Under the pieces are notes generated by a model. That model did no database searches. It saw only the letters and a program-made list of their open reading frames with translations, and was not told the DNA's origin. Shown here in pieces: positions 36,435 to 38,859 of a DNA stretch of 47,042 bases (the stretch's first letter is position 1; every line of letters begins with the position of its first letter). The translations under genes and the position numbers were made by a program. Source of the DNA: Vicugna vicugna (taxonomy: Eukaryota); assembly GCA_013265495.1 (NCBI GenBank), contig PNXW01001012.1:1-47042 (forward strand), read 5' to 3'.

Positions 36435-38240
36435 ATTGTTGATTAGGCTACAGGAAAGAAGAAAAAGTAGGACAAGAAACAAAGGCTAGAAATCAAACTC
36501 TTAATTTTCTAACATTTAACCATGGTCTTTATAGTTCCAATAAAGATCCAAAATTAAAGAGTCAAACATTATAATAAACAGTAGGCTGACAGGGGTTAAC
36601 TTCCATAAAAAACTAAGATTAGTTAACTCTGCATCAATTTAATATGAAACCACAGCAAGCAAACACATGATGTAATAGGTATTATGGAATAGATTGTAAC
36701 ATATATAAACAGAGCAAACCTTTATTTTAAAAAAGGAGATACTAGATATGGTAACATTCTAAATTTATATCCCACCTTGTTCCAAATGGCATTTAAGATG
36801 ACTTACACTGGTAATTAATTCCTCAATTTGGTAGCTGCCTAAATCATAGGGAATCCAAATCATTAGAAGCAACATTTAAATAGAGGAAATCTTGATTCTG
36901 GAACTGGAAAGAAGTAGGGAAATTTAATAGAAAATAGGATGCTGAAATCAAAGTCCATGGAAAGATGGATTTAGCCTGAATTCTCTTGTCTTTGATCAGA
37001 ACTAGAATGCACCAATTCTCTACAAAGATCAACCTATTTAAAACTTCTTAGGAAACTTCAGGGGTATTTTTACTTTATAACCTTAAATGTTATTTAGCAA
37101 AAACTTAGTATCAGAGCCATTAGTTAAAGAGTGGTATTATAAATTAAAAGATCCTTTGGTCCAGTCCATCTTCCGGCAGACAGCACTCATCAAGAACAAA
37201 TTCACTTTACATTACACACCACAGCACAGCTTTTAAGACAGTCTCCACCATTCACAAAATCCATGCACATGCACAGAAAAGCCATCTGAAGCGTCACCTT
37301 TAGATAGCAGGTTAACAGCCCAAACTGCGCCACAAGACTGCATCTTAAAGTTCCCTTTGATCAGTTATTGAGCCCGGCTTCTGATGTTAAGTCTTCGTTT
37401 TTAGTAAGCAGATTAGAAAAGAAGAGATTAGGTGAGAGAATGAATTGCAGAAAATAGTGAATGCCAGTCAAACAGAACAGAAGCAGGTTTAGAGTTTTCA
37501 AAACATAATGCATTTAAATTCCTGCCTGGTTTCATAGAAACAACCAACATCTGAGAATCTAGATAAAAAGAAAAACAAGAAAACTATTTAAACCAGGGCA
37601 TACTTCATTTTTCCTAAGAACTTCTGAATGATGATATTCTGTCCTAAAATTATGAAAATTAACATGAAGAGAAGGCAAATATTTTACATCTCCAGAGAGC
37701 AGGATGGAGGAAGTCATCACATGTTGATTAAAATACAGTATTTCAGTATTTATTTTAACCAGAGCTGAATATTTATACCTTAATATGGCATAAGATTGAA
37801 ACTGTAGTATCAATTTTGAATTTAAGTGGTCCAGAAAAACCAACTTGTCTTCAAATTACGTGCCATTATGTTTGACATTTGAAGCATAGACTGAAGAGAG
37901 GCAAGTTAATATGTTCTCTGAGAATGGTTAAACCAGACACCAGTTTACTATTCTGAGATGTCCCTGCCACTTTTTAAACTCATGTTAATCAGAATTATGA
38001 CTTATCAAAGTTACTGACAGAGATACATGATTTTTAATAAGGATTTGTGCTATTCTGCTCTTAGGATTCAAATAGCAACAAGCTAAAAGAATGACATTTA
38101 TTCACACTTTTAAAGTTTAATTCTGCTAGTCTGTTTTTAAATTCTAGTAGCCCTTAAGACTTACCTAAAGTTAAAATTCCCTTCTACTACAGAGTGCTGT
38201 TAAGTGAAGCTATTTTCACATCTTAACAAAAAAAGATCCC

Positions 38241-38372
38241 CTGCAGCCAATTAAGCCAACTGCTCTTTTCCTCAGGGGGCCCAGTGTGCAATGGCTTCCA
38301 ACAGCAGCCTCCTCAGTAGTGTATGTAGCCTGTTGCCTGTATGGATTGCCCTAAGGGACTTTGGAGACAGCC
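38241..38372 (+). ncRNA. SNORA70: SNORA70 (U70) H/ACA snoRNA retrocopy, probably non-functional
   Basis: ctgcagccaattaagcc...cccagtgtgc...gtagtgta...ctaagggactttggagaca matches recalled SNORA70; H box ACAGCA at 38301-38306, ACA box at 38367-38369 three nt from the end; antisense to the SNAP23 intron. Confidence 0.9.
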
Positions 38373-38416
38373 CTTTCCAGTGGACACTCAAGCCTGGCAT
38401 ACTGTCCCCAACCTAG

Positions 38417-38805
38417 GCTCCAGAGAGGTATGCGCAGTGCCTTTTGAAAGCTCGAGGGCACAGTGGCCAGGGTCCACACTGGCCAAGTCATCATGTCCAT
38501 CCACACCAAGCTGCAGAACAAGGAGCATGTGATTGAGGCCCTACGGAGAGCCAAGTTCAAGTTCCCTGGCCACCAAAAGATCCATATCTCCAAGAAGTGG
38601 GAATTTACCAAATTTAATGCAGGTGAATTTGAGAACATGGTGGCAGAAAAGCAGCTCATCCCAGGTGGCTGTGGGGTCAAATACATCCCTAATCGTGGCC
38701 CCCTGGACAAACAGCAGGCCCTGCACTCGTGAGGGCCTTGGCACTGTCCCTTCCTTACTCATGACCACCAATAAATCATACCTTCCCATCCTCTCAAAAA
38801 TAAGA
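38417..38805 (+). pseudogene. RPL10: RPL10 partial processed pseudogene (last two exons, 3'UTR, A-tail remnant)
   Basis: [59 protein letters not shown]...ALHS*; premature TGA at 38445-38447; no intron at the QK/IH junction (38579/38580); AATAAA at 38770-38775. Confidence 0.95.
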
Positions 38806-38859
38806 ATCTCCTGGCGTGACCTCAATGAATACTACCGAACAAAAGAAATTTCCAAAGTG

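Follow-up and report, generated by a model that had tools for sequence, protein, structure and literature searches.

A SNORA70-headed RPL10 retrocopy in Vicugna vicugna is very probably a Type-3 U70 snoRNA retroposon

Introduction

The closest described relatives of the element reported here are the Type-3 U70 snoRNA retroposons ("snoRTs") defined by Weber in 2006 (PLoS Genet; PMC1687206). That work reports the U70/RPL10 Type-3 structure for human, rat, mouse, elephant and rabbit, and finds it in 30 of the 42 human RPL10 processed pseudogenes. The mechanism proposed there consists of cleavage of the pre-mRNA and exonucleolytic trimming to the snoRNA's 5' end, with the remainder of the transcript being spliced and polyadenylated in the normal way. 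Elsewhere these elements appear under the name of exon-containing U70 retrogenes, of the U70m type (Luo & Li, NAR; PMC1802619).

RNAs of corresponding structure have been described more recently. Dyskerin-bound, cytoplasmic 3' fragments that retain H/ACA snoRNAs were reported in 2022 (PMC9394076), and direct detection of an RPL10-SNORA70 "3'-snoRT" RNA in human cells followed in 2025 (PMC12152556). In the latter study, snoRNA-retaining RPL10-SNORA70 transcripts occur in full-length and 3'-shortened forms, with the shortening located at or very near the snoRNA's 5' end. That paper does not tie the RNA to retrocopies; the strings "retropos" and "pseudogene" do not occur in it. The SPA and cSPA cases, namely the Prader-Willi SPAs and the SNORD86/NOP56 cSPA, use box C/D snoRNAs (PMC9394076, PMC11028025, PMC12084880).

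Here we analyze a 47,042-nt stretch of the Vicugna vicugna genome (contig PNXW01001012.1, assembly GCA_013265495.1), referred to below as the window, in which a prediction made from the sequence alone had placed a retrocopy of a SNORA70-RPL10 hybrid RNA. Like the Type-3 retroposons, the window copy begins at the mature snoRNA 5' end and contains the whole RPL10 intron downstream of the snoRNA, the last two exons in processed form and the polyadenylation signal of the host gene, and in this genome, as in human, there are many independent copies of this kind, exceeding plain RPL10 processed pseudogenes in number. Nothing in kind separates it from them, the only departures being that its poly(A) has almost disappeared and that its target-site duplication (TSD) is weak. 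The window copy is a further Type-3 member, in a genome outside the species given above from PMC1687206.

The 3'-shortened human RNA, composed of snoRNA, retained intron tail and downstream exons, is what the retrocopy implies as its template, although it is an RNA of human somatic and cancer cells whereas the window copy is a fossil at the DNA level from a different mammal. The SPA and cSPA lncRNAs are similar in that a snoRNP blocks 5'-to-3' decay to yield a snoRNA-capped, polyadenylated RNA, but their cap is a box C/D snoRNA, while the one here is box H/ACA (RF00156) and belongs to an RNA that we infer from DNA copies alone. Ordinary RPL10 processed pseudogenes have the parent gene, the 3' end and the presumed insertion machinery in common with the window copy. 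They differ in having lost all introns, with the upstream exons running directly into the 163-nt exon; in the window copy, the intron tail and the snoRNA take the place of those exons, and no insert sequence precedes them.

Results

The window contains a full-length SNORA70 at 38241-38372 on the + strand (Rfam RF00156, 129.9 bits with a cut-off of 40 bits, E = 1.3e-25, model positions 1-135 of 135). Both hairpins, the H box (ACAGCA) and the ACA box (ACA-N3) are kept, with two non-standard pairs flagged. The snoRNA is the 5' end of an insert with the following features, all on the + strand.

38218 to 38240, +: upstream flank, candidate 5' TSD, from local alignment with 38787-38805 (38228-38240 in the original prediction)
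38241 to 38372, +: SNORA70 (U70) H/ACA snoRNA copy, 5' end of the retrocopy (RF00156, model 1-135/135)
38373 to 38416, +: RPL10 intron tail, complete at 44 nt and ending in the 3' splice-site AG (39/44 identical to parent L009 4061-4104)
38417 to 38579, +: penultimate RPL10 coding exon, 163 nt, aligned to parent 4105-4267 (Pfam Ribosomal_L16)
38580 to 38732, +: last RPL10 exon, coding part with stop codon TGA; spliced junction at the parent exon borders, open frame
38733 to 38786, +: RPL10 3'UTR with AATAAA at 38770-38775, from alignment to the parent
38787 to 38812, +: A-rich remnant (38796-38806) and candidate 3' TSD, inseparable from one another (weak evidence)

The intron-containing RPL10 parent gene is located on contig C8878 (locus L009) of the same genome. 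Its SNORA70 (145.5 bits) lies within the 581-nt penultimate intron preceding the 163-nt exon, as the original prediction had assumed from the arrangement known for RPL10. The landmarks of the parent locus are as follows.

3926: snoRNA position +1
4061 to 4104: intron tail
4105 to 4267: exon, 163 nt
4268 to 4347: last intron, 80 nt
4348 onward: last exon
4538: AATAAA

Alignment to the parent makes plain the anatomy of the window copy, the gene from which it derives, its exact 5' boundary and the removal of the last intron. It falls into two pieces (parent 3926-4270 with window 38241-38582, 89.0% identity over 345 columns, and parent 4346-4554 with window 38578-38786, 88.5% identity over 209 columns), indicating that the snoRNA, the intron tail and the exon are unbroken and that the last intron is cleanly gone. 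The segment predicted to be host intron matches the RPL10 intron over its full 44 nt, without gaps. A single alignment piece covers snoRNA, intron tail and exon, and the insert lacks an internal poly(A) or TSD, which accords with the single insertion that had been proposed. The exon-exon junction coincides exactly with the parent exon borders (4267/4348), and the 80-nt intron is absent, just as expected for a 163-nt exon joined without an intron to the last exon and followed by 3'UTR and AATAAA. An open frame extends from 38448 to the stop codon at 38730-38732, and its ORF has a match to Pfam Ribosomal_L16. Homology to the parent ceases at 38786, downstream of AATAAA. At the other end, the insert does start at the first base of SNORA70, since the Rfam match runs from model position 1 and parent homology from 3926; 5' of 38241 the window copy has no homology to the parent, and position -1 is C in the window and T in the parent.

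The poly(A) of the window copy is reduced to an A-rich remnant, AAAAATAAGAA, at 38796-38806, which is merged with the candidate TSD. The A-rich flanks had been read as a decayed TSD, and a local alignment between them does exist, with a best score of 17. We compared this score with those of flank pairs of the same geometry taken from the window, either at random or with an A-rich upstream flank, and found it equalled by 2.7% of 5000 random pairs and by 5.9% of 2230 A-rich pairs. The candidate TSD is therefore plausible but not significant by itself, and we discarded it as stand-alone proof of retroposition. Overall, the hallmarks of L1 insertion in the window copy are weak.

Differences from the parent are spread over the whole insert, at 14/132 positions in the snoRNA, 5/44 in the intron tail, 15/161 in the exon, 13/151 in the last-exon coding sequence and 13/58 in the UTR. 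The snoRNA in the window has not evolved more slowly than the rest of the insert (14/132 versus 46/414, Fisher p = 1), and on this comparison with the remainder of the insert we rejected selection on it as a functional SNORA70 paralogue. The window copy decays evenly and neutrally, without sign of selection.

The insert lies 11.8 kb downstream of the stop codon of LRRC57, the coding exons of which (+ strand) end at 26403. Among 13 long ORFs searched against Pfam, matches were confined to the RPL10 piece and to an LRR exon belonging to LRRC57; no exon was identified downstream of the insert.

Genome-wide, 26 SNORA70 matches exceed the cut-off, corresponding to the parent and 25 copies. The copies represent 23 independent insertions, because three of them (L012, L014 and L020) have common flanks and were counted once. 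In 20 of the 23, the snoRNA, the intron tail and the exons are present with the last intron spliced out, so that this form has recurred independently; one further insertion (L023) is of equal extent with the last intron retained, and two (L021 and L024) comprise snoRNA and intron tail without exons, L021 ending exactly at the 3' splice site. The 5' ends are similarly uniform: 20/23 lie at parent positions 3922-3927, within 6 nt of snoRNA +1 (3926), whereas three insertions (L007, L017 and L022) are truncated inside the snoRNA. Homology stops at the snoRNA throughout, as had been predicted for the window copy, and 0/25 copies match the 402-nt intron segment that precedes the snoRNA. Given that the 5' ends scatter from -4 to +2 and that seven copies have T at -1, as does the parent, the 5' end of the RNA may precede Rfam position 1 by 1 nt, or may be ragged.

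Ordinary RPL10 processed pseudogenes are present at ten loci (L026-L034 and L036), eight of them independent, along with four short RPL10 3' fragments (L035 and L037-L039). SnoRNA-headed insertions with exons thus number 21 (20 spliced and L023), compared with eight independent ordinary RPL10 pseudogenes. Several copies, for example L004, L005, L010 and L037, have clear A-tails and TSDs of their own.

The tree of copies is comb-like with long tips, and strong support was obtained for only 1 of 18 inner branches, the one joining a duplicated pair. The closest row to the window copy is the RPL10 parent, and the flanks of the window copy match no other locus. The shape of the tree, and the position of the parent nearest to the window copy, fit repeated emission of copies from the RPL10 gene. 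A 3-nt indel in the intron tail was considered as a time marker of emission from the parent; it sorts imperfectly with divergence, and the tree was preferred.

Discussion

Our data make it very probable that the insert at 38241-38786 belongs to the Type-3 U70/SNORA70 snoRNA retroposons, of which the genome has approximately 20, and that it is old, is decaying neutrally and was formed in the manner already proposed for this class. An RPL10 pre-mRNA would have retained the penultimate intron, with the snoRNA inside it, lost the last intron to splicing, and undergone cleavage and polyadenylation at its 3' end. Exonucleolytic decay in the 5'-to-3' direction would then have stripped all RNA 5' of the snoRNA, halting at the assembled H/ACA snoRNP; for both the nuclease and the snoRNP block, we rely on analogy with what has been published for other species. 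The snoRNA-5'-ended, poly(A)+ RNA left by this decay would have been reverse transcribed and inserted, presumably by the L1 machinery, and the heritability of the insertion suggests that the hybrid RNA occurred in the germline. The original prediction called for just such a template, snoRNA-5'-ended, spliced and polyadenylated, and pointed to U70 retrocopies with host exons in other mammals. Its interpretation is supported and was already in print: PMC1687206 describes such retrocopies and gives the same mechanism, and PMC12152556 reports the RNA in human cells.

Alternatively, the 5' boundary could be a property of the enzyme rather than of an RNA 5' end, if L1 reverse transcriptase (RT) copied a capped, full-length RPL10 mRNA with the intron retained and repeatedly halted at the 5' edge of the snoRNA. 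Frequent 5' truncation among L1-mediated copies, truncation within the snoRNA in 3/23 insertions, the four short 3' fragments of RPL10 and the presence of full-length retained-intron RPL10-SNORA70 transcripts in human cells (PMC12152556) would all agree with such arrest. RT proceeds 3' to 5', however, and meets the 3' side of the snoRNA hairpins or snoRNP first, yet it would have crossed all 132-135 nt in 20 copies; moreover, a 6-nt window holds 20/23 ends, and 0/25 copies stop in the 402-nt upstream intron or in upstream exons with the intron retained. Direct observation in human cells of a 3'-shortened RNA whose end lies at the snoRNA or close to it (PMC12152556) also argues for a boundary set in the RNA, and we regard arrest of RT as very improbable. 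A composite origin is the least credible of the explanations considered, and we give it almost no weight. The snoRNA and RPL10 parts might have been joined by two insertions or by template switching, with L1 RT jumping from RPL10 mRNA to a free snoRNA, and snoRNA retroposons are known to include both template-switch chimeras and adjacent double insertions (PMC1687206). The native 44-nt intron tail that bridges snoRNA and exon as in the gene already refutes this, and an internal A-run or TSD is absent. Duplication of the gene's 3' end at the DNA level is countered by the precise loss of the last intron together with the end of homology after AATAAA.

The recurrence of the boundary would be uninformative about RPL10 RNA processing if one retrocopy, truncated by chance at snoRNA +1, had become a transcribed master and spawned the others. 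All copies do have a common extent, and L012, L014 and L020 came from one insertion by DNA duplication. In the tree, though, the RPL10 gene is placed among the youngest copies, the inner branches are near zero and no grouping of copies to the exclusion of the parent has strong support; nor is there a common flank such as read-in or read-out transcription of a master would leave. L023, with its last intron kept, and L021 and L024, neither of which reaches beyond the intron tail, are not derivable from a spliced founder, and the class has independent origins in human, rodents, rabbit and elephant (PMC1687206). A founder copy is accordingly very improbable, and trimming of RPL10 transcripts to the snoRNA remains the reading that we favor.

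The window copy is thus real but ordinary, its retroposon class, its mechanism and the spread of the class over placental mammals being already in print. In the census of copies, heritable copies of the snoRNA-5'-ended fragment of RPL10 outnumber those of mature RPL10 mRNA, an RNA far more plentiful than the fragment, here (21 versus 8) as in human (30 versus 12; PMC1687206), an excess of about 2.5:1. One tentative explanation, which we advance as a possibility and consider somewhat doubtful, is that a cap-less, polyadenylated RNA capped instead by an H/ACA snoRNP serves as a privileged template for L1 in germ cells; such an RNA might be long-lived, cytoplasmic and ribosome-free. In the literature searched, we found no explicit link between Type-3 snoRTs and "3'-snoRT" RNAs as a privileged L1 template. 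If the idea is true, Type-3 snoRTs would preserve, in fossil form, a quantitative record of the "3'-snoRT" RNAs lately seen by long reads.

These results independently replicate, in another mammal, the finding that the snoRNA-headed form is the main route of RPL10 retroposition, and they yield as a by-product a set of approximately 20 dated fossils. The rarer forms among them, in which the last intron is kept or the copy terminates precisely at the 3' splice site, could be of use in working out the sequence of processing events in the RPL10-SNORA70 transcript.

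The window copy and its parent gene

The Rfam scan of the window gave a single strong snoRNA match, SNORA70, with both of its boxes, H and ACA, in place. An intron-containing RPL10 gene is present in the same assembly (2.03 Gb, 12,405 contigs), on contig C8878 (locus L009), and served as the parent for comparison.

Features of the window copy (window positions) and of parent RPL10 (L009 positions)
38241-38372, + strand: SNORA70 (RF00156), Rfam scan, 129.9 bits (cut-off 40), complete model, 1-135 of 135
38448-38732, + strand: open frame, Pfam Ribosomal_L16 (L10e), C-terminal part, E 1.4e-09
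38730-38732, + strand: stop codon of the downstream RPL10-like frame
38770-38775, + strand: AATAAA, polyadenylation signal
Parent, ending at 3523: preceding exon
Parent 3926-4060: SNORA70, 145.5 bits
Parent 4061-4104: intron tail
Parent 4105-4267: 163-nt exon
Parent 4268-4347: last intron, 80 nt
Parent, from 4348: last exon, with AATAAA at 4538

Alignment of the window copy with the parent yields two pieces, parent 3926-4270 (345 columns, 89.0% identity) and 4346-4554 (209 columns, 88.5% identity). The snoRNA, the native 44-nt intron tail (39/44 identical) and the exon therefore run on without a break; the last intron is missing exactly at the exon borders, and homology starts at snoRNA +1 (the first base of SNORA70) and stops at 38786, shortly past the polyadenylation signal.

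The hallmarks of insertion are poor. The A-tail is down to AAAAATAAGAA, and the best flank pairing, 38218-38236 with 38787-38805, has a score of 17. Among 5000 flank pairs drawn at random, 2.7% reach that score, as do 5.9% of 2230 A-rich control pairs. The copy is 11.8 kb past the LRRC57 stop codon and has the same orientation as that gene.

LRRC57 coding exons
22402-22485, + strand
22587-22733, + strand
23383-23655, + strand (98% identity to bat LRRC57 protein)
25748-25933, + strand
26365-26403, + strand

Weak tRNA-model matches at 28865-28938 (+) and 33628-33700 (-), of 30.9 and 34.0 bits against a cut-off of 29, are most likely heads of tRNA-derived SINEs rather than tRNA genes.

A family of snoRNA-headed RPL10 retrocopies

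The window copy belongs to a family and is no singleton. SNORA70 matches above the Rfam cut-off number 26 in the genome, the parent and 25 copies, and we aligned to the parent 39 non-parent loci, comprising all SNORA70 copies and all other RPL10-like matches. Flank comparison identified L012, L014 and L020 as DNA duplicates of a single insertion and found no shared flanks among the remaining snoRNA-bearing loci, window copy included, so that the 25 copies represent 23 independent insertions. The last intron is spliced out and RPL10 exon sequence is present in 20 of these 23, two of which (L019 and L022) break off soon past the first exon; one more (L023) starts and ends alike with the last intron kept, and two (L021 and L024) consist of the snoRNA and intron tail alone. 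In many copies an A-tail and a target-site duplication belonging to that copy are obvious. Ordinary RPL10 processed pseudogenes, with every intron removed, occupy 10 loci that correspond to 8 independent insertions (L027-L029 share flanks), and four loci hold short RPL10 3' fragments not classifiable by form. Independent insertions thus number 21 snoRNA-headed with exons versus 8 ordinary, close to the human ratio.

Several other copies are unusual in their own right. L023 (G000:C4811:37486-41087, minus strand, insert at about locus 1505-2098) is old, 75% identical to the parent, and reaches from snoRNA +1 to the poly(A) site, with seven A after it and the 80-nt last RPL10 intron retained, indicating a template that was snoRNA-ended yet wholly unspliced downstream. 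L021 (G000:C3773:16054531-16056709, minus strand), 93.5% identical to the parent and the youngest of the SNORA70 copies, holds only the snoRNA and its 44-nt intron tail, runs to the 3' splice site and one G beyond, and is followed by twelve A; its sequence resembles what retroposition of an excised-intron processing intermediate, once adenylated, would leave (Weber's Type 2). The snoRNA of L013 (G000:C10346:15079263-15081804) outscores the parent in Rfam (155.3 vs 145.5 bits) and differs from it at 14/134 positions, whereas the exon and UTR segments inserted along with it differ at 0.14-0.36 (Fisher p=0.013 before any correction for 24 tests), a hint that it may be a maintained SNORA70 paralogue; L008 (G000:C7737:2704183-2707713; 150.2 bits) has a weaker trend. 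Among the ordinary pseudogenes, L027, L028 and L029 (G000:C1200, C565 and C3809) have both flanks in common, 94-99% identical, and so are a single insertion later duplicated as DNA; all three lack the exon at parent 3383-3523, which points to exon skipping in the template or to a deletion.

Source and age of the copies

We built a maximum-likelihood tree of 21 rows (L020, L021, L024 and L025 were left out as too short, and L040 was not in the alignment). Its shape is that of a comb: the tips are long, the inner branches are near zero, and only 1/18 inner branches, joining the duplicated pair L012/L014, is strongly supported. The RPL10 gene falls with the youngest copies, and no row lies nearer to the window copy. 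This topology fits repeated emission from the RPL10 gene itself rather than copy-to-copy spread.

The copies lie at K2P distances of 0.09 to 0.41 from the parent. At 0.139 (0.118 without CpG sites), the window copy is among the youngest exon-bearing copies. Its differences from the parent (snoRNA 14/132, intron tail 5/44, exon 15/161, last-exon coding 13/151, UTR 13/58) are spread evenly over the insert (snoRNA versus rest, Fisher p=1) and so give no sign of snoRNA maintenance; the copy is a neutral fossil in which nothing points to a function. Among snoRNA-headed copies with exons, the youngest have diverged by ~11-13%. By contrast, an ordinary processed pseudogene, L034 (G000:C1658:4081933-4085036), cut off in the 163-nt exon and adjoining a CA-rich simple repeat, is 98-99% identical to the parent, indicating that RPL10 mRNA retroposition has been recent in this genome.

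The template and how it may have formed

The 5' start lies at parent 3922-3927 (+1 is 3926) in 20/23 insertions, those of L019 and L040 being read from alignments, and in the other three (L007, L017 and L022) the copy is truncated 20-47 nt inside the snoRNA. Of the 402 nt of intron that precede the snoRNA in the parent, alignment recovered nothing in any of the 25 copies. Seven independent copies (L002, L003, L005, L008, L011, L013 and L015) carry the parent's T at -1, starting one base before Rfam position 1; the RNA that was copied may have begun at -1, or had a ragged 5' end anywhere from -4 to +2.

From their shape, the copies imply a template that began at the snoRNA, kept the penultimate intron, had usually lost the last one to splicing, and ended at the normal poly(A) site. 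In the most economical route, an RPL10 transcript retaining the snoRNA intron would decay from its 5' side until halted at the H/ACA snoRNP, and the remaining snoRNA-ended RNA would be reverse-transcribed by L1; we infer the nuclease, the snoRNP block, the involvement of L1 and the germline setting. Alternatively, arrest of the reverse transcriptase could have set the 5' boundary, but this is unlikely, since the whole snoRNA was read through in 20/23 insertions and stops in the upstream intron were never seen among the copies. For the window copy, the contiguous native intron tail rules out template switching or double insertion, and the missing last intron rules out DNA duplication.

The original prediction, that a snoRNA-ended, spliced RPL10 RNA was retroposed here, is supported. 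The SNORA70, the 44-nt tail and the spliced exons that it described do align to RPL10 of the same genome, and none of the three kinds of contrary evidence that it named was found; in particular, 38373-38416 is RPL10 intron and homology does not extend upstream of +1.

Relation to known retroposons and RNAs

Weber 2006 (PMC1687206) defined Type-3 snoRNA retroposons by just this form, and the window copy belongs to that already described class. That study singled out U70 in RPL10, with the Type-3 form in 30/42 human RPL10 processed pseudogenes and further U70/RPL10 copies in rat, mouse, elephant and rabbit (PMC1687206); the excess recurs here. Luo & Li counted 21 human U70-related copies and described exon-containing retrogenes of the U70m type (PMC1802619). 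On the RNA side, H/ACA snoRNA-retaining transcripts yield dyskerin-bound cytoplasmic 3' fragments, likened to cSPA RNAs (PMC9394076), and full-length and 3'-shortened RPL10-SNORA70 transcripts are reported in human cell lines, tissues and plasma, with the shortening point at or very near the snoRNA 5' end (3'-snoRT; PMC12152556). Both halves of the original inference, the retroposon form and the RNA form, had therefore been published. Our literature search found no published tie between the two, which a wider search could overturn, and neither "retropos" nor "pseudogene" occurs in PMC12152556, which dates from 2025. Tying Type-3 retroposons to 3'-snoRT RNAs is thus possibly the new part, as a synthesis rather than a discovery.
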